DNA from: Candidatus Bathyarchaeota archaeon
GTDB taxonomy: Archaea; Thermoproteota; Bathyarchaeia; Bathyarchaeales; Bathycorpusculaceae
Direction of reading: 5' to 3'
Assembly (NCBI GenBank): GCA_963772455.1
Contig: CAVYXJ010000009.1
Span: forward strand, 96,001 to 160,000
Length of the DNA stretch: 64,000 bases
This document shows, piece by piece, positions 38,470 to 52,241 of the stretch. The translations under genes were made by a program, and so were the position numbers. Position 1 is the first letter of the stretch. The number at the start of each line of letters is the position of its first letter. Below the pieces are notes generated by a model. It worked only from the letters and a program-made list of their open reading frames with translations, was not told where the DNA came from and did no database searches.

Positions 38470-38547
38470 GGGTCCGTAGCTCAGTCAGGCTAGAGCATCG
38501 GACTTTTAATCCGAGGGTCGCGGGTTCAACTCCCGTCGGACCCGCCA
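38470..38547 (+). tRNA. tRNA-Lys(UUU), intron-less, CCA encoded
   Basis: Acceptor stem GGGTCCG/CGGACCC, anticodon arm TCGGA-CTTTTAA-TCCGA, T-loop GTTCAAC, 3' GCCA. Confidence 0.96.
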
Positions 38548-38578
38548 AATTATATTGGAGTAAATTTTATTTTGTGGA

Positions 38579-38824
38579 TCATTTTCTATAACCTCTTTTC
38601 GTCTGTGCTTTCTTGAGGTTAGCTTCGACTTTGGTTATCCTCTTCTCAAGTGCCGCTATTTTTTCATTCTCTTGTTTTTCGGACACTTTTTTTGCTCCTG
38701 TAAGATTGGAGACCGTACATTGTTGTAGACGCTTGCAGGAAGCGCAATGGACACGCTCTTGTCCTCGTTTTGAGGTAAAATTCATGAAGGCATCTGTAAG
38801 ATAGCTAAAATTTTTATGTTCCAT
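38579..38824 (-). CDS. Hypothetical small protein (CxxC, C-terminal coiled coil)
   Basis: 81-aa ORF inside the element; HCASC; IAALEKRITKVEANL. Confidence 0.4.
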   Translation of the reverse strand: MEHKNFSYLTDAFMNFTSKRGQERVHCASCKRLQQCTVSNLTGAKKVSEKQENEKIAALEKRITKVEANLKKAQTKRGYRK

Positions 38825-39041
38825 AAGATTGAAAAACTCATATAGAATTTCGGTTTAATGGAACAATGAGAAAACTCCCACAAGCAAGTACTTCTTTAGC
38901 AACCTAGAATTACAAATAATCAAAGAAATAGCAAAAGGAACCTGTGAATTTTCATCAATTCGCCCTTTTCTGATAGGTATTTAAAAGTTATTAACCAAAA
39001 TGGGTTAACAACATATATCTGCCTTCTACCCAGCCTACTTC

Positions 39042-39407
39042 TTGATTTTCATGCAAGCGAATAAAGTATCTAAACAACACGGGTCAAAAATCATTGTAGC
39101 TTCCAAGGTTTACCAAGTTGTGTATTGCATTGAAATTAGGTATTCTTCAGGTGAAGTATGGTGGCAAACATGGCATTTATTGAAGTGCCCTATAGTTGGG
39201 TTTAATCGTGCTGAGGCTTTACGAAGTGCTAAAGAATGGAAGGTCCAGCTTGGCGCGAAGTTCCAACCGGTGATTATTGGTGAAGATGAGGGGGATTTTG
39301 AGAGCATAGATTGCGATAATCTTTTCGGCATTAATGCCATTGGTGGATTTGATGCTGGCGAGTTCGAGTTTCCAGATTGTCTACTTGAAGAGGATGAGTG
39401 TCCATGA
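39042..39407 (+). CDS. Hypothetical protein of the integrated element
   Basis: ORF overlapping the next gene; acidic C-terminus. Confidence 0.55.
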   Translation: MIFMQANKVSKQHGSKIIVASKVYQVVYCIEIRYSSGEVWWQTWHLLKCPIVGFNRAEALRSAKEWKVQLGAKFQPVIIGEDEGDFESIDCDNLFGINAIGGFDAGEFEFPDCLLEEDECP

Positions 39408-39817
39408 AAGGACAACCTTGGACTGTTCAAGAGGAAAAGCAACTTCGCGAAATGGTTCAGGCGAAAAGAAAGCTCAATGAAATCGCCACGTTTTTTGGCA
39501 AATCTCCTGAAAGTGTCAAGAAAAAGATGAATCGTCTTAACTTGGAAGTAGTCGTCCTGCAAATTCCAAAGACGACTACTTCTAATGATTTACCAAGTGT
39601 TGAAGAAGCACTCCAGAAACTCAACGATGCGTTGGTCTCGCTGGAGACTCCTGGGCTTGATCACGCAGAGACTTTACGATTGCGTAGCATAATCCAAGGT
39701 AGGAAATTGTATATCGAGAAGTTTGCTGATTTTTTGAATTACCAGGAACTTGAGGCTCGTTTGTTTGATTTGGAGGGAAAATATGCGGCGCTTTCTAAGA
39801 AGAGCAAGAACTCTTGA
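39398..39817 (+). CDS. HTH + coiled-coil protein, candidate terminase small subunit
   Basis: PWTVQEEKQL...EIATFFGKSPESVKKKMNRL HTH; overlaps the TerL start. Confidence 0.6.
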   Translation: MSMKGQPWTVQEEKQLREMVQAKRKLNEIATFFGKSPESVKKKMNRLNLEVVVLQIPKTTTSNDLPSVEEALQKLNDALVSLETPGLDHAETLRLRSIIQGRKLYIEKFADFLNYQELEARLFDLEGKYAALSKKSKNS

Positions 39818-41231
39818 TATTAATGCCTACAGGCGGCATCGTGGAATTTTGGATAACTCAGTAGTGGAACTTGAAATTGAGCTGGCAAGTCAAGTTACAT
39901 CTTTGAGTGTTGATGTTAAGGCGTTTTTTGAGCAGATTTTCGGTTTTACTCCATTTAAGTACCAGCTTGAATTGGCAGACTTGTTTGAGAAGAATCAGTT
40001 TACTTCTGTCCGCTGGTCTCGCCAGACGGGTAAGAGTTTTTGTGTTTCGGCTTTGCTTTTAAAGTATGCATGGGATCATCCTGATAGCTATATTGCGATT
40101 GTTGGACCAAGTTTTCGGCAAACAAAATTGAATATCAGGCGGATGGGGGGTTTTGCTAGAAAGCTTCCTCAGCTACCAGGATTGCACATACAGAAGACCA
40201 GAATTACCTTGCCTAATGGCAGTACGATTGAGGCTTTTCCAAACAACCCTGACACAATCAGGGGACCAACCTTCAAAGTAATCTGGATCGAAGAAGCAAA
40301 TTTTATTCCAAATGACGAGGACCTCTATGATGCAGTTCTATTTACTCTTGGAACGACCAACGGCAAGTTGATTGCTACTTCCACGCCTTTTAATACGGAT
40401 AGTTTGTTTTGGAAAATGTGCAATCACAAAGACTTCAATGATTTTGCAAGATCTCATGTACGATGGAGCGAGGCCATGACGCCAAATGGTCCCTGGTACC
40501 CAGCAATGGTTGAGAAAATTAAACGCCAGTTCGGAGATGACCCTCAACGTTGGCGCCGAGAAATGGAAGCAGAATGGGCAGAAGACGAAGACACATGGCT
40601 ATCTCAAAGCCTAATCGTAAGCTGCATTGGCACAGAAAAGAGTTGCGAAACTGATCTGCAAGAGTTTAGCCCCGATGCAAACTATAAAGGCGACTTTTTT
40701 GCAGGATTAGATTTAGCGCAAACACGCGATTTCTGTGTACTCTCAATTGTTGAACGGTTAAATGAGAAACTATTTCTTAGGCATGTCAAAATTTTCAAGC
40801 AACCTACCCTCTACTCAACTGTTATGGGTTATCTTAAGACACTGCAGGACCGTTGGGGAGGATTTACGAAAATACGCATTGACTTCACACGGGAAGGTCC
40901 TAGTATAATTGCAGATATGACTGCTGCTGGAATTGACAATGCTGAAGGTGTGAACTTTAGTGTGCCCCGAAAAAGTGAAATGGCAAGTTTGCTTAAGCAA
41001 CGTATGTCTAATGGCGATTTCTTTTATCCCCTTCTAAGTTGGGAAAAGCCCTATCGAGGAGATATTACCGCCGAGTTAAATGTTGAACGATATGACTTGC
41101 GCAAAGATGGCTCCATAGGCTTCTCACATCCTAATGGTACACACGACGATGTCTTCTGGAGCATAGCCCTAGCAGTATACGCGACCGCAGAAATGAGTCC
41201 CGAACCATTCATAGCAGTCATCCCAAGATGA
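39783..41231 (+). CDS. Terminase large subunit (Terminase_6-like)
   Basis: FTPFKYQ, Walker A SRQTGKS, IRG, Walker B IWIEEA, STP, RREMEAEW, RNase H-like AGLDLA..RD, HDD...SIALA. Confidence 0.92.
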   Translation: MRRFLRRARTLDINAYRRHRGILDNSVVELEIELASQVTSLSVDVKAFFEQIFGFTPFKYQLELADLFEKNQFTSVRWSRQTGKSFCVSALLLKYAWDHPDSYIAIVGPSFRQTKLNIRRMGGFARKLPQLPGLHIQKTRITLPNGSTIEAFPNNPDTIRGPTFKVIWIEEANFIPNDEDLYDAVLFTLGTTNGKLIATSTPFNTDSLFWKMCNHKDFNDFARSHVRWSEAMTPNGPWYPAMVEKIKRQFGDDPQRWRREMEAEWAEDEDTWLSQSLIVSCIGTEKSCETDLQEFSPDANYKGDFFAGLDLAQTRDFCVLSIVERLNEKLFLRHVKIFKQPTLYSTVMGYLKTLQDRWGGFTKIRIDFTREGPSIIADMTAAGIDNAEGVNFSVPRKSEMASLLKQRMSNGDFFYPLLSWEKPYRGDITAELNVERYDLRKDGSIGFSHPNGTHDDVFWSIALAVYATAEMSPEPFIAVIPR

Positions 41232-41314
41232 CAAAAAATGAGAACAGGAAAACCTAATTCATATCCGAAAAACACGCTTGGCAGACGACAAGTTAACATT
41301 TCCACAATTACCAT

Positions 41315-41333
41315 TCCCGTCCGGACTCGCTCA
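41315..41333 (+). repeat. Degenerate direct repeat of the tRNA-Lys 3' end (putative attR)
   Basis: tcccgtccggactcgctca versus tRNA tcccgtcggacccgcca (38531-38547). Confidence 0.6.
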
Positions 41334-41395
41334 ATTTCGTTTCTCATTAGAGTTTTTTCCACAAGATAGAAAAAGAGAACTACAAATTTACATTT

Positions 41396-44438: not shown

Positions 44439-46844
44439 CTATTTCCGTTTGACTAATATCGCATTGTCTTTGTCGAACGAGTATTCGGCATATTTTTGTG
44501 TGTAGAATAGTCTTAGGTATTCTGCTGCAAAACGTGGTTGAAACGGCAAATCTTCAGGTAAAAGTTTTTCTTTCACTTTGAGGCGTTCTTCGATTGCTGC
44601 TTCTGCTATTGGATAATTTAACAGAAATTCTTTGCGCTCTTTATATGCCGATAAGGTTTGTATAGCCTCATTCATGTAGGATAAGTAGAGGGGCAAGTTT
44701 TCCATTACTTGGTTGACCTTGTAATTTGATGGGTTAGCAAGGATCTCAATTGCTTTGTTTAGGCGTTCCCGCAATGTAGAGTTTTTCTCCCACAAGTAAT
44801 CTTTGGTAGGCAGCAAGTGATCGATTACGTTTTCATCATTGATTAATTCAGTATACAACATAGCTAGTACGTCGTTAGCGATACCTAGTAATGATTGAAC
44901 ATCTGATTGTAAAGTGATGATATCCAAAATATCCAGTTTTTCTTTTTCAATCATTTTCTGAGCGTCAATTGTCATTTCTTCTGCTTTCTTTGCATAGCCA
45001 AGCACTTTAGGGGTATTTTCGCCAAAAACTACTGACAAATCTTCATTTTGAGTGCTTATGTTAGCAATTGGTGTTAGTGAATTTTGAAGGAGTTTCATAG
45101 ATGCTTGAATTTCTTGGCCATATTGACGTTTCCAATTATTGAGTGAACTGTATAATGCTTCGATGACAATCCAAGGTGCCTCTTTTGTCTTTAACTTTTC
45201 ATTTGCAAATTCTATTGCGCGGCATTTCTCAGGAAGAGTAGGGTCATATAGCGATCTTATGATTTTGTAGATTGGGTCAACTACTAAAATTGCTTCGAGC
45301 GCTAGAGCTCTTCCAGTATCTAAAACTTGCTTTATACGTTCTATTCTTTGTTCTAAGGTTATTTCTTGTTGAAAGGGTTCACTAATTATTGTTTTGATTG
45401 GCAACCCTGCATCTTTGAGTTTTCCTGCCCAATTTGAATATTCGCAAGTTGCTAGAATTTGATATTCAGACAGGATAACATTTAATTCAGTTTCTAAAGA
45501 TTCGATGTCTTTGTCTAGTTGGTTTAGTTGGTTAAATTTTTGGTCTAACTCTTCTTGTTCATACCTGTGTTTTTCAGCATTTTTCAATGTGTCTTCAAGT
45601 GAATCCTTGAGGACGAGCATTTTTCCTTGTGGCGTAGTTATAGTAACAGGAATGTTATTTTGTATATTATCAAGTTGTCCTTCGAAAATCAGAATTTTAT
45701 TTAGGAGGGTTTTAGTTTTTTCTTGAATCTCTTTGTTTGAAGATCTATTCTTGGGAGCGGAATCGATGAAAGCCACGGGCAAAGTAAAAGCAAGTGTGGC
45801 TAAAATACCTAAAACCATTGTTGTAGCACTAACGTCAGCTGTGAAAGCTAATGGAACTTGAAGGGCACTTAGAAGAATGAAGAACAAGGCTGCTGCAATG
45901 GTAACGGTAAATATTTGAAAAAGCCTGTCTCCCTTACCAATTAAGCCTTCCTTTACTAATGTTCTTGTAAAGAAGACAAGTGTTAAAGCAAGCCCCACGA
46001 CAATGACCACAAACATAAGTAAACCTGGAAGAGAATCCAGATACTGTGCCAATGCATCTTTGATTGTGCGTCCAGTCCAATCGGGAACCCAGGTAGTTTG
46101 ACCTGCAATTTCATAGAAAACGTTGGATATATCGAACAGTCGAACTTGAGTACCGGACAAGTTAAGGCTCTTAGAAATTGAGCTCAACGATACCAAAAGA
46201 GGTGGGCTTGACCCTGCTGCTACCCACCAATCAGTCCTAGCAATCTGAGTAACGACATCATTGTAATATTGCAAAATCTGTAGAGGCACAGAAATTAAAA
46301 CGTAATACACTATTGAAAGAACAACGTTCTTTTTGAAGTAAACCGCTGAAGCTAAAATCAGTGGAATAGCTAAAAAGTAAGTTGGAGCAAAAAATAGCAT
46401 CGTAACTGCTAATATGCCAAAATCAATGGCAAGTGCGCTCTTGTATCGGTTAGAAATGAGAGGCAGAACAATAAACAAAGTTAGCCAAATGGCGATAAAT
46501 GCAACTCGAATTGTTGTATCTCCAAGGAAGGAAATAAATCTTAATTGGGCCAAATGGAATAGTAACCCGATACCAATGATTGCGCCTCCTACTGGCATGC
46601 CCAAACGTGGACTCTTGAAAACGACAAATGCAACCAATACTGCAAGAAAAATTGGCACTGGTTGAGGGAAAATCGGCAAGAAGGACATTCCTAGAGCCAT
46701 GGCTACAGATGTTAACAGAAAAGTAACCATTTTTAGTGTTGAAGATTCAAGATTGCGTTCTTGCTCTTCGTTGTCTTTTCTTTTCTGTAAACTGGTTTTA
46801 ACCGAAGGGATAATGCCAGAAATTTTTAAGGAAGGTTTCTTCAC
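44439..46844 (-). CDS. Polytopic membrane protein with a large C-terminal helical/coiled-coil domain
   Basis: Roughly 8-9 hydrophobic segments in the first ~360 aa, then ~440 aa of K/E/L-rich helical sequence. Confidence 0.8.
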   Translation of the reverse strand: MKKPSLKISGIIPSVKTSLQKRKDNEEQERNLESSTLKMVTFLLTSVAMALGMSFLPIFPQPVPIFLAVLVAFVVFKSPRLGMPVGGAIIGIGLLFHLAQLRFISFLGDTTIRVAFIAIWLTLFIVLPLISNRYKSALAIDFGILAVTMLFFAPTYFLAIPLILASAVYFKKNVVLSIVYYVLISVPLQILQYYNDVVTQIARTDWWVAAGSSPPLLVSLSSISKSLNLSGTQVRLFDISNVFYEIAGQTTWVPDWTGRTIKDALAQYLDSLPGLLMFVVIVVGLALTLVFFTRTLVKEGLIGKGDRLFQIFTVTIAAALFFILLSALQVPLAFTADVSATTMVLGILATLAFTLPVAFIDSAPKNRSSNKEIQEKTKTLLNKILIFEGQLDNIQNNIPVTITTPQGKMLVLKDSLEDTLKNAEKHRYEQEELDQKFNQLNQLDKDIESLETELNVILSEYQILATCEYSNWAGKLKDAGLPIKTIISEPFQQEITLEQRIERIKQVLDTGRALALEAILVVDPIYKIIRSLYDPTLPEKCRAIEFANEKLKTKEAPWIVIEALYSSLNNWKRQYGQEIQASMKLLQNSLTPIANISTQNEDLSVVFGENTPKVLGYAKKAEEMTIDAQKMIEKEKLDILDIITLQSDVQSLLGIANDVLAMLYTELINDENVIDHLLPTKDYLWEKNSTLRERLNKAIEILANPSNYKVNQVMENLPLYLSYMNEAIQTLSAYKERKEFLLNYPIAEAAIEERLKVKEKLLPEDLPFQPRFAAEYLRLFYTQKYAEYSFDKDNAILVKRK

Positions 46845-46850
46845 GCAATC

Positions 46851-46873
46851 TACCTAAAACCTTATTTTAGGTA
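46851..46873. promoter_or_regulatory. 9-bp inverted repeat in a 61-bp divergent intergenic region
   Basis: tacctaaaa-cctta-ttttaggta. Confidence 0.45.
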
Positions 46874-46905
46874 AACTCCTCTTAAAGCTTATGTAGGTAC
46901 CTCTG

Positions 46906-48282
46906 ATGAATGATGGTAAAGCAACGTTCAACGTACTAGCAAGCATAGAAAAACATATTGAAGGGTTAAAGCCGCTATTGCCAAAACAAGTCTTGGTTTG
47001 CATCGGCGAATATCCTATAAAAACAATCTTAAAGGAACCTATAATTACTAAAGATCTTGCTCTACCAATCTTAATTGAAAAGTCAAGCGATGAAATTTAT
47101 AAGTGGCTTCCAAAAGGCTACGATGCGCATTTTGTTTTAGGGCTTGAAGAAGAACGCATAGATACACATTTCTGGTACAATGTTTTACCCACTATTTCTA
47201 AAGATAATTCAGTTTTGGAGAGTTTGAAGAAGAAATCTTTTGAAAAAATCCATGGTGCAATAATTTTTTCTTCAGTTTGGGACGGAGTCGGTAGTGCATC
47301 GCTTCCAACATATATTAGAAAGTTCAAAGAATCTAATATTGATTCACTTTCTATAATGATTTTACCCTCGAAAATTCAGCCTAAAGATGCCCAATTCAAT
47401 GCTTGTGGTGCTTTAGAAACATGTTTAGCTACGGATGGGGCAACAGTTTTGCTTTTGGAAAGGGATCAAATTGATAGTTATGAGGGTGTTGATCGAAAAG
47501 GTGAACCAATTAAAGGCGATATAACTGCAAATTATCTTTTGAATCTGTTTTTGACCAAGAATTCTCTTGTTGAAGAAATTGCAGAGTTGTCAAGGACTTT
47601 TAATACCAAACTGTTTACTGCTTTGTTGGTTACTGGTTCAAGCTACAATATATTCGGTTCCTTTGGTAACATGTTAAACGCTGCGTTTCTAAAACCTTTC
47701 TTTACCTTTGATTTGCCAAACGCTCCTTTGATATACGTACTTTTGCGTATGCCTTTGATTATGAAAGATAAGGTTACAAGAAGCAAAATCGAGTCAACAA
47801 TAACAAATTTGTTTAAGGAAAAAACAAACCTTCAATCAATATACATAACTGAACCTATCTATACCCAAGACTTGACCGATAGGATAGATGCAGTCTTGTT
47901 TATAGGCGGTTTTGAAGCGACCAAGCTTCTGTCAGATATGGAGACAAAAGTAAAGTCTCTAAAGGATGATGCTGTTGGGAAAGGTTTCATTACAGAAGAT
48001 TGGAAAGTTGTTTCAAAAATTGAAAGTTCACCTAATATTGTCGATATTCTAAAAACCGTAGAGCCGACAAAAAATGATGAGTCTAAAATTGTAAATGAAG
48101 CAACAACGAATGAAGAGGAAATAAAAGTCGCTGATTCTGCGGGTTTAGAAGAGGCAAAAATTGTGGAGCAATCGATATTAAGTGATCAACCCAAAATTGC
48201 TGAAGAGCCAAAAATTACCGTACCAAAAAGAGTTCGTAGAACAAAGAAAACAATAACTAAAAACTTGGATGAAGAAAAATAG
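46906..48282 (+). CDS. Degenerate tubulin/FtsZ-fold protein
   Basis: Ordered remnants VCIGEYP (T1), GAIIFSSVWDGVGSASLP (T4), MILPS, NACGAL, LLERD; charged disordered tail. Confidence 0.65.
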   Translation: MNDGKATFNVLASIEKHIEGLKPLLPKQVLVCIGEYPIKTILKEPIITKDLALPILIEKSSDEIYKWLPKGYDAHFVLGLEEERIDTHFWYNVLPTISKDNSVLESLKKKSFEKIHGAIIFSSVWDGVGSASLPTYIRKFKESNIDSLSIMILPSKIQPKDAQFNACGALETCLATDGATVLLLERDQIDSYEGVDRKGEPIKGDITANYLLNLFLTKNSLVEEIAELSRTFNTKLFTALLVTGSSYNIFGSFGNMLNAAFLKPFFTFDLPNAPLIYVLLRMPLIMKDKVTRSKIESTITNLFKEKTNLQSIYITEPIYTQDLTDRIDAVLFIGGFEATKLLSDMETKVKSLKDDAVGKGFITEDWKVVSKIESSPNIVDILKTVEPTKNDESKIVNEATTNEEEIKVADSAGLEEAKIVEQSILSDQPKIAEEPKITVPKRVRRTKKTITKNLDEEK

Positions 48283-48291
48283 TTTATAGAT

Positions 48292-48314
48292 AAAGGAGTA
48301 TAAAACTCCTTTTT
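48292..48314. terminator. Hairpin between convergent genes (possibly a bidirectional terminator)
   Basis: aaaggagt-ataaa-actccttt followed by T residues. Confidence 0.5.
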
Positions 48315-48322
48315 AATTGAGC

Positions 48323-50993
48323 TTACTTTTTGTCGTTAGCGTTGTTATGGTTGTTTAATGCTTTAATGATGTTAGTAGCGTGCACTCCGTGTTCCAGTAG
48401 GAATGAGCGTGACAGATATCTTTCGAAGTCGCTGGATTTGCTATATAAGAGTTGCATTTCATCGTAGGATTCCAAGTCTTCCGATTTGGCTCGTCCGCCG
48501 ACTACCATGACTCGAGTTGTCCAGGCATCTCTTGATTCAACAACACGTACAGTGATTGTTCTTGAGACTTCGCTTGTTACGTATCCAGCTAATGCAGTGT
48601 ATACTTCCTGAGAGAGGTCTTCAGACCACATGTTTGGCGGTGTTGAGATGGTTACCCATATGTAATCGGTTTTGTATGTGTTTTTGAAACCCATAATGCT
48701 TGGTGTCTTGAAAGCTCGGATAACACTTTTCATGTAATCTTTAAAGTGGTCCATATCAAGGATTTGCTTGAAGATTACTTCGCGAGTCAATGTGTCTTCT
48801 TGCTCTGTAAGTATTTTGAAAATTATTTTGAGTTGTTCGCGTTCTGTTAAGTCTGCTGATTTCTCGAAGTAAGGCTTTTGTGAACCTATTTCAGCAATCT
48901 TTAGATTGTATTCATGGTGTAAATCAACAATCTTGTTTAATCGTTTGCGGTATTCAGAAACTAATTCGAACCGTTTGGCCAATTTTTCATAGAGTTTGAT
49001 TGTGCTGTCAACTTTGTTGAGATTCTCAAGCGCAAAAGATTCTTCTTGTTCAACTCGCTTAAGTTCTCGATCTATGTCCAGAAGTTGTTCTCGTGCATAG
49101 CGTTTTCCGCTAAGGAACTTTCTAAGTTGTCGTTCCATTTTAGTTTTGTCAAATTCTTTGCGTTTCTTTATCTCTTGAACTCTCATGACTTCGTTGTCGA
49201 AGTTTCCTCTTTTCTGCATACGCTGTGTTAAGATTTGGTTAATGTAGGTAAGGTGTTCATCGATCATTTTAGATTCGTCGGCTGGCGTTCTAAGCATAAG
49301 TTGAATTACTAGGTAGATTGTTCCGAGTTCTGTCTGGATAGCCTTTAAGTCTTCTAATTCGGCTTTGCATTCTGGGAGAACTTCGTAGTATCGTGTTAAT
49401 GCGTCTGTTAAGTATCTGGTTTCGTCGTAGAATTTGAGAATAGATAATGATTTTTCTGTTAGTTCAGCTATGTTCACAAGGTCTTCTATTACTTTCTTTT
49501 GTCTTAGAGTAAAGATTTGTGAGCTTGGAATAAGCTGGTTCAAGCGTTCAATGATTGTTGCTTTACGTTGTGGGAATTCTAGGTATGTTTTTTGTAGATT
49601 TGTTAGTAATATTTCTAGGTTATCGAGTTTTCTATTGCCATCTTTGCGTAGTGTTAGGTTTATAATTGATTCTTCGATTGGGCCAATTTTGCCCATTAGC
49701 TTTATGGTAGATAGGAATTTCATTATGTCGTTTAGCCAGTTTTTGACTTGTATCTCAGTTCCTTTTACATGTAATGTTGTGTCGTCTTCGAGTCGTGGGT
49801 TGCTAGTTATGATAGTTTTAAGTTTTTCTTCGAATTGTTCTTCATTGTAAGTGCCTGTTTTTATAAGATAGTTTTTGAAGAGATCTCTAGTAATTTCACT
49901 ATCCACTTTTATGACATTGTTAATTTCTTCAAGGATGTTCTAGTTTTTCTTTTCTTGAATCTTGTAGAAGTTGCATTCCTTCAAAGTTCAACTTGTATGC
50001 CATTATATAGTCTTCAACTGGATAGGTCACTTTTGTCATGCCCAAGGTATGCGATGAATTGTTGGTTAGACCTACTTCAGTTCCTATGCCACCTAGCAAG
50101 TCTGCCAAGTCAAAGTCCATTAAAACATACAGCAAGTCTACGACCATTTGATCCATTTCTTGTCTTGCACTTACAATGTTGCCAACTTTTGAGAATGCTG
50201 GTAGCAAAGGTAGGTAGACTAGGGCATTTATTGGGTTTCGGTAGATTTCTCCATAATTCTTAATGACATATTCGTTATAGTCTTTGTTTAACAATAGTGA
50301 AAGTTCGTTCATAGCCACGAAGGCTGAACAGCCTTTTGCCGGAGGATCATCTCCACCGCATGGAGTGATAACGAAAGCTATGATTGGCACACCTGAACCT
50401 AAAACTTTTCGCAGGTGTCTAGCAAAGTCGAAGAATAAACCGCTGCCTGTACCCCCGCCAAGTCCGTAAACCAAAGCTACTGTTGGGGTTACAATTGATG
50501 AAAGTGCCTGCTCTTTAAACGAGTTGATACAATTGCGAATTATACCTAGTTGGTAGTAGTTTAATGCATAGATTGCTTTTGCGAGTGCTCTTCTTCGGCC
50601 TGCGCCTCCAGCCATTGGTGGAATAGCCATTGTGGTTTGTAACCAAGGGACAAAGGTTTCGAGTTTTGAACCTTCACCGATTAAGTATTCTCCGTATTTT
50701 TGGTTGACGAAGTCGAACATTGCTTCGGCAGTGGGGAATTTGACTGATTGTGCGACTAAACGCATTCGTTCGCGTGGGATACCTGCTTTAATCATTGATT
50801 TGACTGTTTGCTCATATGCTTCTTGCAGGCTTCTGATTTCTGGGTCAGCTATGTCTATAGCTAAAAGAGAAAGACGTGTTAGGTCGTTTTCCATTAGTTC
50901 TTTGGTTTTCTTATTCGTTAAGAAAGATTCAACTATGTTTGTTCCTGCTGAACCAAGACCTATTAACTGAACGCTGTTTTGGTAGATTCGCGT
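48323..50993 (-). CDS. Tubulin/FtsZ-superfamily GTPase (Tubulin_2-like) with a long coiled-coil region, about 890 aa, one frameshift near 49930
   Basis: Frame extends upstream of 50894 through VQLIGLGSAGTN (T1) to ACG 50993; AIDIA, GGAGR, GLGGGTGSG (T4), ITP; the second ORF is the coiled-coil part. Confidence 0.85.
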
Positions 50994-50999
50994 ATTCTA

Positions 51000-51953
51000 T
51001 CACATCCCAACTAATCTTTTTAATCTGTCTTTTACTGACTCAAGATTTGAGGACATTGCCCTATCGATTTTAGCGGCTCTGATTGTTATGCCTTCCAAGT
51101 CTTTAATTTGATCCTCAACTACAAGCTGGAAATAGCTAACTTTTCCACGTACTCTCAGGAACATGACCACAAATACAACTGCTAAAACAGCTAGCACCGC
51201 TATTACGGGTATAAAGAGCATTTCAGTTGATGAACTTACTGGTGGATTGGATGCATTGAGACTGTTTAAGAGAGCTGTTGCATCGCTAACATCACCTGCG
51301 TTAGCTATGGCTCTGGATGCGTTGAGAACGTTAGTGAAAATATCGATGTATCCTTGGGCAACTCCGCTTGATTTAAGTTCTTTCAGCTTTGTTTCTTGCT
51401 GGGAGTATAGGACATTAAAGTTGGCTAGACCTGCACTGGTTGCTTGGACTGTTACCTCGTCGAGAGCAGTTCCGCCTGAACCACCATATAAGCTAACAAC
51501 TTTAACAATTTGTGCAACAGTTGTGGTGCCGATTGGAACTTTTCCGTATAGAACCATGTCAAAGGTTCCAGCTGTCCATTTGAATGTTGTTGATTGTGAA
51601 GCTGGGTTGTATGAGGAGCCCATGTCATATCCTGAGGTTTGAAGTTCCCAGTATCCGCTGGGGTGAGATGTAGATTTTCCTAAGCTTGTTGCAAGTCTAA
51701 GTGTATCTGAGCCTAATGCAACAATGTTTATTGTGAATGTAACTTTAATGTCGGTCCCAGGTAATACTGGCGCCAAATTGTTAGTTGTGTTCGTTGAGGG
51801 GTTATATTGAACCAGAAGTTGCCCTGACGAATCTTCAATTGAATATGTCGTTATCCATTGTCCTTCACCAACAGCTTTGACTGGAGAAAAGGACATTATA
51901 ATCATGGTTGTTAAGATGAATAGTAGACTTAGAGCTAGAATTTTGTTTTTCAA
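51000..51953 (-). CDS. Secreted protein with C-terminal TM anchor and cytoplasmic coiled-coil tail
   Basis: Signal peptide ending PVKA, S/T/G-rich beta region, TM helix IPVIAVLAVLAVVFVVMFL, tail QIKDLEG...LESVKDRLKRL; TTG start at 51953 with AAGGAG SD. Confidence 0.8.
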   Translation of the reverse strand: MKNKILALSLLFILTTMIIMSFSPVKAVGEGQWITTYSIEDSSGQLLVQYNPSTNTTNNLAPVLPGTDIKVTFTINIVALGSDTLRLATSLGKSTSHPSGYWELQTSGYDMGSSYNPASQSTTFKWTAGTFDMVLYGKVPIGTTTVAQIVKVVSLYGGSGGTALDEVTVQATSAGLANFNVLYSQQETKLKELKSSGVAQGYIDIFTNVLNASRAIANAGDVSDATALLNSLNASNPPVSSSTEMLFIPVIAVLAVLAVVFVVMFLRVRGKVSYFQLVVEDQIKDLEGITIRAAKIDRAMSSNLESVKDRLKRLVGM

Positions 51954-52241
51954 TTTGGGACACTCCTTAACTTTTTTAGCTTTTAATGCATATAACATTT
52001 ACGCTATTCTAATATAGATTATTAAGAAAGCATGGATTTAACTTTTTTTGGTGCTTATTGGATTTTGCCTCTCTCTTAACAAATGTTTTTTGTATATTTG
52101 TTAAGTCCGCCTTGCAAAGTACAGTGATGGATTTCGGAAATAAGTTAACCTTTTGTATTAAGAAGCTTTAAACAAATTGATATTGAGCAGGACAAAGGAT
52201 AAGAGAATTCAAGAACCTTACATTGATAATAGTGTCTAATA

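Follow-up and report, generated by a model that had tools for sequence, protein, structure and literature searches.

The window examined here is a stretch of 64,000 nt from a Candidatus Bathyarchaeota archaeon, lying on contig C9 of a 2.45-Mb, 24-contig assembly that is 92% complete, and all coordinates are positions in it. Four genes, which we call A, B, C and D, span 44439-51998 in the open reading frame (ORF) listing of the window and form the cassette that is the subject of this report (Table 1). C is a large GTPase-type protein of the tubulin superfamily, B is predicted to be a degenerate relative of the same fold, and A and D are membrane proteins. The genes are tightly packed. A and B are divergent with a gap of 61 bp, B and C converge across 40 bp, and 6 bp separate the stop codon of D from the ACG triplet at which C most likely begins. 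An earlier note on this DNA had described four genes with these same gaps, and the ORF coordinates agree with it. Its suggestion of shared transcription holds for D and C, which are on the same strand, but not for the four genes as one operon; by strand, there are three transcription units, namely D-C (minus), B (plus) and A (minus).

Table 1. Features of the four-gene cassette and their positions in the 64,000-nt window.
Feature	Position	Strand	Basis
Gene A, 801-aa polytopic membrane protein	44439-46844	-	ORF, hydropathy
Gene B, 458-aa protein with predicted degenerate tubulin fold	46906-48282	+	ORF, AlphaFold2 model, fold comparison
Gene C, FtsZl1/Tubulin_2-type GTPase, ~889 aa without the extra base	48323-50993	-	ORF, Pfam, relatives, model
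Gene C as listed in the assembly, two ORFs	48323-49906 + 49929-50894	-	ORF listing
Gene D, 332-aa probable type-I membrane protein (317 aa if the start is 51953)	51000-51998	-	ORF, hydropathy
ACG, probable initiation codon of C	50991-50993	-	Conservation in related loci
GGGATGTGA, last codons and stop of D, Shine-Dalgarno-like site for C	51000-51008	-	Match to 16S 3' end
T1 loop of C, IGLGSAGTN	50937-50963	-	In-frame translation
T4 signature of C, GLGGGTGSG	50439-50465	-	In-frame translation
T7-like motif of C, DFDLAD, between H7 and H8	50100-50117	-	Alignment A2, model
Extra A in C (GAAC, not GAC), shifting the frame	49938/49939	-	Comparison with three relatives
Predicted helical module of C, ~440 residues, inserted between S7 and S8	48695-50018	-	Model of ortholog
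Predicted strands S8-S10 and helix H10, finishing the tubulin C-terminal domain of C	48488-48661	-	Model
Cytoplasmic tail of D, 51 aa	51003-51155	-	Hydropathy, alignment
Predicted acidic disordered tail of B	48010-48279	+	Model

Once one extra base, treated below, is disregarded, C is a protein of about 889 amino acids (aa), matching the ~890-aa GTPase with intact T1 and T4 motifs that had been noticed from the sequence, and both motifs are in frame. In an alignment of 19 C sequences reaching down to 25% identity (A2), G11, G13 and G16 of T1 and the whole of T4 are invariant. So are D294 and D297 of the motif DFDLAD, which presumably correspond to the catalytic Asp residues of the FtsZ T7 loop. 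Where the T2 loop of FtsZ has NTD, C has AIDIAD.

C matches the Pfam family Tubulin_2 (PF13809) over profile positions 2-207 at 57.7 bits (cut-off 27, E 1.6e-15), and scores 56.6 bits when its own genome is searched with that profile; its match to Tubulin (PF00091) is 34.4 bits against a cut-off of 33. PF13809 also matches Deinococcus radiodurans and Methanosarcina acetivorans, both of which are named as carriers of FtsZl1 by Makarova & Koonin (2010, PMC2875224), and since it matches both of these species, PF13809 appears to be the FtsZl1 family. Judged by these profile matches, C belongs to FtsZl1, a family that has been described but not experimentally characterised. An hhalign comparison of the C profile with a distant 1069-aa match, which scores 89 bits on PF13809, extends over 822 columns (probability 100%, E 4e-46). 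When a profile of nine C orthologs was run against 1.84 billion cluster representatives, it retrieved 170 proteins at E <=1e-3, about 15 of them full-length.

The fold of C was modelled with AlphaFold2 on an intact ortholog using an alignment of 19 sequences (mean predicted local distance difference test, pLDDT, 87.9; predicted template modelling score 0.75). The model runs through strands S1-S6, H7 (272-292), H8 (295-302) and S7 (313-322), passes into long helices from 325 to 761, and returns to S8 (777-783), H10, S9, S10 and closing helices. The helical module occupies residues 325-765 of the modelled ortholog. In VIA-align comparisons, the best structural matches are CetZ chains (Z 27.3-28.1, 310-326 residues aligned). 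CetZ 3zid_B aligns at Z 28.1 with a root-mean-square deviation of 3.2 over 310 of its 342 residues, drawing on the model from 4 to 856, and CetZ1 4b46 aligns at Z 27.9 over 326 of 330 residues, drawing on 5 to 854. Tubulins (352-360 residues aligned) and FtsZ follow at Z ~24, and the best Foldseek matches are CetZ, TubZ, FtsZ and tubulin at E 1e-6 to 1e-4. A search of PDB sequences with the C profile found the T4 stretch of CetZ1 alone (E 9.5e-6). Since the CetZ chains align on both sides across it, the helical region would be an insertion, and the model makes C a complete two-domain tubulin/CetZ fold with a module of ~440 residues between S7 and S8. The earlier note had read this region as a coiled coil following the GTPase motifs; in the model, the chain comes back afterwards and completes the tubulin fold. 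The segment that does so, S8-S10 with H10, has a mean identity of 82.7% within the genus. The insertion site presumably corresponds to the tubulin S7-H9 "M-loop" and H9 region, on the side of the protofilament.

As published in 2010, FtsZl1 proteins are ~1000 aa long and join a head resembling FtsZ to an extended coiled coil and to a C-terminal domain that is mostly helical; a T6-H7 region or FtsZ-type C-domain was not detected in them, and they were predicted to belong to membrane-remodelling complexes (PMC2875224). Their partners in that account are a vWA protein, Ser/Thr kinases, a P-loop GTPase and OmpA (PMC2875224), and FtsZl1 is mentioned in passing in a 2015 paper. C resembles this description in its GGGTGSG head, its long helical or coiled-coil middle, the presence of a further C-terminal domain and its length (~900-1050 aa for FtsZl1, 889-905 aa for relatives of C). 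It also resembles it in being encoded beside membrane proteins and in occurring with or without a canonical FtsZ. Unlike FtsZl1 as far as that account describes it, C is modelled as a full CetZ-like fold that has a T7-like loop and carries the helical region as an insertion, and it is accompanied by a degenerate tubulin-fold protein and by two membrane proteins of no known family. Pfam domains for vWA, Ser/Thr kinase, P-loop GTPase and OmpA were found neither on A, B and D nor on the flanking genes. The system had been put forward as undescribed, which does not stand in view of the PF13809 match and of a layout that is the one described in 2010. It had also been said that the proposal would fall if the GTPase belonged to a characterised family with a known operon; the family is indeed a described one, but its members have not been characterised at the bench and its operon partners are not those found here.

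The cassette type and the more canonical type of FtsZl1 can occur in one genome. G244, a related genome of the Bathyarchaeia, has, besides the cassette type, an FtsZl1 of 888 aa scoring 86 bits on PF13809 (region L114:6221-9523). Beside this second gene are a protein with a VWA match of 23.7 bits, just under the cut-off of 23.8, and an AAA+/TPR ATPase, which is the published context. Since G244 holds both, the two types coexist.

CetZ, a cell-shape protein and the nearest structural relative (3zid, 4b46 and 4b45), is archaeal too, is the best match of C (Z 27-28) and is among the best of B. CetZ is said, in work by Duggin and colleagues from 2015, not to be needed for division. The solved CetZ structures have 330-342 residues and no insertion, whereas C has 889 aa and a ~440-residue insertion, with an identity of 14-16%. 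C also differs in passing PF13809.

The fold of B is hidden from sequence searches. Its match to PF00091 is below the Pfam cut-off (15.2 bits against 33, E 0.027). Among the best 120 of 445 matches, all homologues of B are close Bathyarchaeia "hypothetical proteins" without Pfam domains. The AlphaFold2 model of B has a mean pLDDT of 71.4, with core blocks mostly at 80-93 and the tail below 40. In it, residues ~25-367 make a complete tubulin/CetZ fold, followed by ~90 disordered acidic residues that end in a basic patch. Compared with 48,161 chains by VIA-align, the model is closest to OdinTubulin (Z 28.1, 333 residues aligned), BtubA (27.8), Asgard AtubA/B2 (27.6) and CetZ (27.4). The first unrelated fold is at Z 9.3, about 8 Z units below the weakest tubulin-family match. 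B is thus predicted to be another complete tubulin fold, one whose GTP loops have degenerated, in keeping with the degenerate tubulin-fold protein that the sequence had suggested. T1 reads CIGEYPIK and T4 reads WDGVGSAS, of which only G127, G129 and S130 are kept. An acidic residue at the start of H8, the helix after H7, is present in 16 of 16 sequences. The acidic P/E-rich tail with its short basic patch recalls the acidic tails of tubulins. It is C-terminal in the group of the window and N-terminal, with a length of 260 aa, in a subgroup represented by L064 (11873-12652); Pfam finds no family on this N-terminal extension, which is acidic, P/E-rich and of low complexity.

A and D are membrane proteins by hydropathy, as had been anticipated for a multi-spanning A and for a D anchored by a signal peptide and a transmembrane segment. 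A has 9-11 hydrophobic segments in residues 40-360, followed by a soluble C-terminal half of ~440 residues, and in the related loci it always adjoins B divergently. D has a signal-like segment, a variable extracellular part, a transmembrane segment at residues 260-278 and a cytoplasmic tail of 51 aa. Over the same 16 sequences, mean pairwise identity is 71% in the tail and 39% in the ectodomain, and on this evidence D is a type-I membrane protein whose tail is far better conserved than its outside part. Scans of A, B and D with Pfam, NCBIfam and PADLOC gave nothing above cut-off. In the ESM Atlas, A leads to hypothetical clusters of Bathyarchaeota only and D to no usable named match. The A profile finds nothing below E 0.4 among PDB sequences, and hhalign of A with C gives a probability of 2%. 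A predicted complex of full-length C with the D tail (283-333), based on A2 and run without controls, scored 0.00, which speaks neither for nor against binding. The D tail and the soluble half of A are candidates for holding C to the membrane, and in this idea alone they resemble the FtsZ tethers FtsA, ZipA and SepF; in a Pfam scan, no homology of A, B or D to these proteins was found. FtsA, ZipA and SepF lack a large extracellular part, whereas D has one.

The start of C was surveyed in 80 related loci, which are public metagenome-assembled genomes (MAGs) or GTDB species genomes with the same genes at 58-100% identity. In the window, there is no ATG, GTG or TTG between the in-frame TAG and the T1 loop of C, which confirms the suspicion that a non-ATG start was hiding this loop. 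The N-terminal motif (R/K)IYQNS was sought in all 80 loci and found in 77, the exceptions being L031 and L084, which are broken at the 5' end, and L105, whose N-terminus has diverged. The codon directly before the motif is ACG in 69 of the 77 and ATG in 2, and in the remaining 6, the ACG is one codon further upstream, making 75 of 77 with ACG. The two most divergent copies, L024 and L105, have TTG at this position. Elsewhere in the C genes, ACG makes up 9.4% of 3,970 Thr codons, and the codons around the conserved ACG vary freely among loci. In 60 of the 77 loci, no canonical start precedes it in frame. At a distance of six to nine bases before the ACG sits GGGATGTGA, which is kept regardless of the relative frame of D and C among loci, and GGATGTGAT agrees at 8 of 9 bases with the complement of the 16S 3' end GGATCACCTCCT.

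Since the ACG is conserved at a fixed place, is a rare Thr codon and follows the Shine-Dalgarno-like GGGATGTGA behind D, it is most likely the initiation codon of C, used by ribosomes that have just finished D. A point on the other side is that in 17 of the 77 loci, a GTG or TTG stands in frame shortly before the ACG, which may there encode Thr; this is mostly the GTG of GGGATGTGA, overlapping the TGA of D. A programmed frameshift or read-through of the TGA-TAG between D and C was considered and rejected, because the relative frame of D and C varies and the extra base of C is absent in relatives. Near-cognate initiation at ACG has eukaryotic and viral examples. The putative case of C is like them in having a conserved ACG behind a ribosome-binding site where a few relatives have ATG or TTG, and unlike them in being archaeal and in being coupled to the termination of an upstream gene. 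It matters for annotation. Because C would start at ACG, gene callers drop its GTP-binding T1 loop, and B carries no annotation at all.

C had also been described as split by an indel near 49930, and this proves to be one extra A, with GAAC in the window and GAC in three relatives. Without it, the frame of C is intact. Among the 13 congeners with a match, C is one open frame of 889-905 aa in nine, is shortened to 690 aa in one and is in pieces in three (G002, G015 and G023). The two parts, C1 and C2, share an uninterrupted frame in 79 of the 80 related loci, with L081, where C is in pieces, as the exception. In public sequencing runs, all four contigs that bridge the site are without the extra base, one from X2 (DNA), two from X15 (RNA) and one from X19 (RNA). 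These contigs stem from relatives and so establish the intact frame as the norm, saying nothing on this strain. Against the same three relatives, the window has two more +1 insertions. The one at ~54411, in a T run, splits a GHMP-kinase-like gene of 313 aa in relatives, and the one at ~56257 splits an ORF of 154 aa that is intact in the three relatives. Three +1 insertions in about 8 kb, one of them in a probably important gene, suggest assembly error, and the extra A in C is probably an error of sequencing or assembly.

The alternative is that the extra A is real and the cassette is decaying in this strain, with C a pseudogene or two separate polypeptides. This would be tolerable for a cassette that is dispensable in the genus, and C is in pieces in the three congeners and in L081 as well. 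The site is AA against A with no long homopolymer, and X1, the closest run, does not cover the frameshift, so that a real inactivating mutation in this strain keeps some likelihood. On the other hand, there is no further lesion in A, B, C or D in the window, and both halves of C remain 94-96% identical to the nearest relatives. The two additional insertions, within 7 kb in genes intact in relatives, are the pattern of assembly error, and the bridging contigs from three runs all lack the base. G023 is frameshifted in nearly every gene compared and looks like an error-rich assembly. Decay is the less likely account, though it deserves to be kept in mind.

The relationships of the four genes to one another are conserved. 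The order D-C-B-A, in the same orientation, is found in 12 of 12 loci from congeners and in 72 of the 80 related loci, the other 8 ending at a contig edge before the missing gene. Co-location in related genomes had been named as the test of the four-gene system, and it is what we find. Archaeal labels are attached to 78 of the 80 loci, for the most part Candidatus Bathyarchaeota or Bathyarchaeia (among them Ca. Bathycorpusculum and "MCG-6"), besides a single "uncultured archaeon" and a single "Thermoproteota archaeon". The remaining two, L056 and L073, have the full cassette on contigs binned as bacteria (Limnocylindrales and Sulfotelmatobacter), probably by mis-binning. One of the eight loci that end at a contig edge, from a Ca. 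Bathycorpusculum MAG of termite gut, has an insertion of ~3.8 kb between C and B that holds three unrelated ORFs (L059:10700-14504). D-C-B-A recurs, at 24-59% identity, in two other families of the class (four of six additional loci). In 15 distant loci, A, B, C and D are the sole families common to all, and the other flanking genes differ between groups. No fifth gene is common to all 15; family F5 lies beside the cassette in five of them.

The cassette is nonetheless not universal. C is present in 13 of 24 congeners. Of 301 genomes of the class, 76 have a match to PF13809, which is above cut-off in 68; the matches fall in 21 of 109 genera, mostly of two families. G001, which is 98% complete, has an exact empty site, with the two flanking genes lying ~275 bp from each other. 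The cassette is therefore a conserved but dispensable, accessory element in Bathyarchaeia. Its flanks in the window are metabolism genes: a phosphoribosyltransferase, an alpha/beta hydrolase, an RHH-AIRS-like protein, a cytidylyltransferase, a GHMP kinase and an ECF transporter component.

This distribution is also what a conflict, defence or surface-recognition system might show, with the ectodomain of D sensing a virus or neighbouring cell and the tubulin-like pair acting as effector or scaffold. That is the main functional rival to a cytoskeletal role. The presence and absence within the genus with a clean empty site, and the faster divergence of the D ectodomain relative to the tail, both fit it. 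However, PADLOC finds none of its families on A, B, C or D, the metabolic flanks are no defence island, and the cassette occupies one chromosomal position throughout the genus and has been conserved vertically between families. Neither Pfam nor NCBIfam finds a nuclease, protease or other effector domain on the cassette proteins. We consider this role unlikely.

Canonical FtsZ (for example, L110:791-1897) is found in 6 of the 24 congeners, whereas among 16 genomes from other genera in the order, it is found in 14. Several near-complete congener genomes, one of them a single contig, are without it. In the own genome, at its 92% completeness, C is the sole match to PF00091 or PF13809. A congener FtsZ of 369 aa (AVGLGGAGCN...AVNTDATH) matches nothing there at E 1e-3, C included. 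The same genome has four Snf7/ESCRT-III-like matches, one of them at cut-off. Counting the 24 congeners and the own genome, FtsZ and C are both present in 4, C only in 10 (the own genome included), FtsZ only in 2 and neither in 9. Five of the congeners with neither gene are 96-98% complete (G001, G006, G014, G017 and G019), and since they manage without both, the cassette is neither needed for division nor a substitute for FtsZ. A takeover of the division role by C and B, in a genus where FtsZ has largely been lost, for which the rarity of FtsZ and the solitary position of C in its genome might be cited, is very improbable given these five genomes, the four congeners with both genes and the ESCRT-III-like genes of the own genome. 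We infer that any polymer of the cassette is not used for division.

Taking identity and mechanism together, we favour, with some reserve, the explanation that the four-gene cassette is a membrane-associated tubulin-superfamily system of the FtsZl1 type. Its identity and anatomy can be given with considerable confidence, and the mechanism is put forward tentatively. C would polymerise head-to-tail with GTP, either alone or alternating with or capped by B, and the T7-side acid of B would act on the nucleotide of C, as alpha-tubulin does on that of beta-tubulin. The helical arm of C may project from the side of the filament and dock to the membrane through the D tail, the soluble half of A or both, with D possibly linking the outside to C across the envelope. 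The polymer would then organise or reshape the envelope. Translation of C would be coupled to that of D and held low by the weak start.

Several observations weigh against this explanation. We found no biochemical or imaging evidence for any FtsZl1 protein in the literature. A and D have no known family, solved relative or ESM Atlas lead. The sequences of B and C are only weakly alike, with hhalign giving 52% (E 1.4e-4) over the T4-S5 stretch. About half of the genus lacks the cassette, a pattern as compatible with a niche or conflict role as with a cytoskeletal one.

A comparison with alpha/beta-tubulin, BtubA/B and Asgard AtubA/B bears on how B and C might work together. As in those systems, two diverged tubulin-fold genes are kept together. 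B has lost its nucleotide loops but keeps an acid at the catalytic T7/H8 place, and its best fold matches are tubulins. The cassette differs in that B and C are on opposite strands and have diverged in sequence, and their pairing is putative. Alpha-tubulin still binds GTP, whereas T1 and T4 of B are degenerate. A more elaborate reading, and one that we regard as improbable, is that B and C form an alpha/beta-like heterodimer that polymerises on the inner membrane face, with D linking to the outside and its tail controlling assembly. B would be a catalytically dead activator and C the GTPase with a 440-residue lateral arm. If it were true, these FtsZ-poor TACK archaea would have a membrane skeleton built on tubulin-like proteins that responds to signals, and termination-coupled initiation at ACG would set its dosage.

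Few branches of the tubulin/FtsZ superfamily are as diverged as FtsZl1. If C has the full CetZ-like fold with a catalytic-type T7 loop, polymerisation-dependent GTPase activity is a concrete prediction, and the "coiled coil" of an FtsZl1 protein of this type would be a lateral insertion rather than a tail. C is always accompanied by two membrane proteins and by a second protein whose predicted tubulin fold is hidden, making a compact four-protein system that could be reconstituted. Its hosts belong to a widespread class of uncultured soil and sediment archaea, and FtsZ has largely been lost in this genus. We found no paper on the cassette, on the complete fold of C or on B; the supplementary operon tables of 2010 may list relatives of A, B and D. 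The complete CetZ-like fold of C, the insertion, the T7-like motif, the hidden fold of B, the partner set and the conserved ACG were not found in print.

Elsewhere in the window, a segment of ~2.8 kb (38470-41351) between tRNA-Lys (38470-38547) and a creatininase-like gene is absent in the close relative L029. It includes a terminase-large-subunit-like ORF at 39750-41231 (Terminase_6N, E 3e-17), and the segment is probably the remnant of a viral element integrated at tRNA-Lys.

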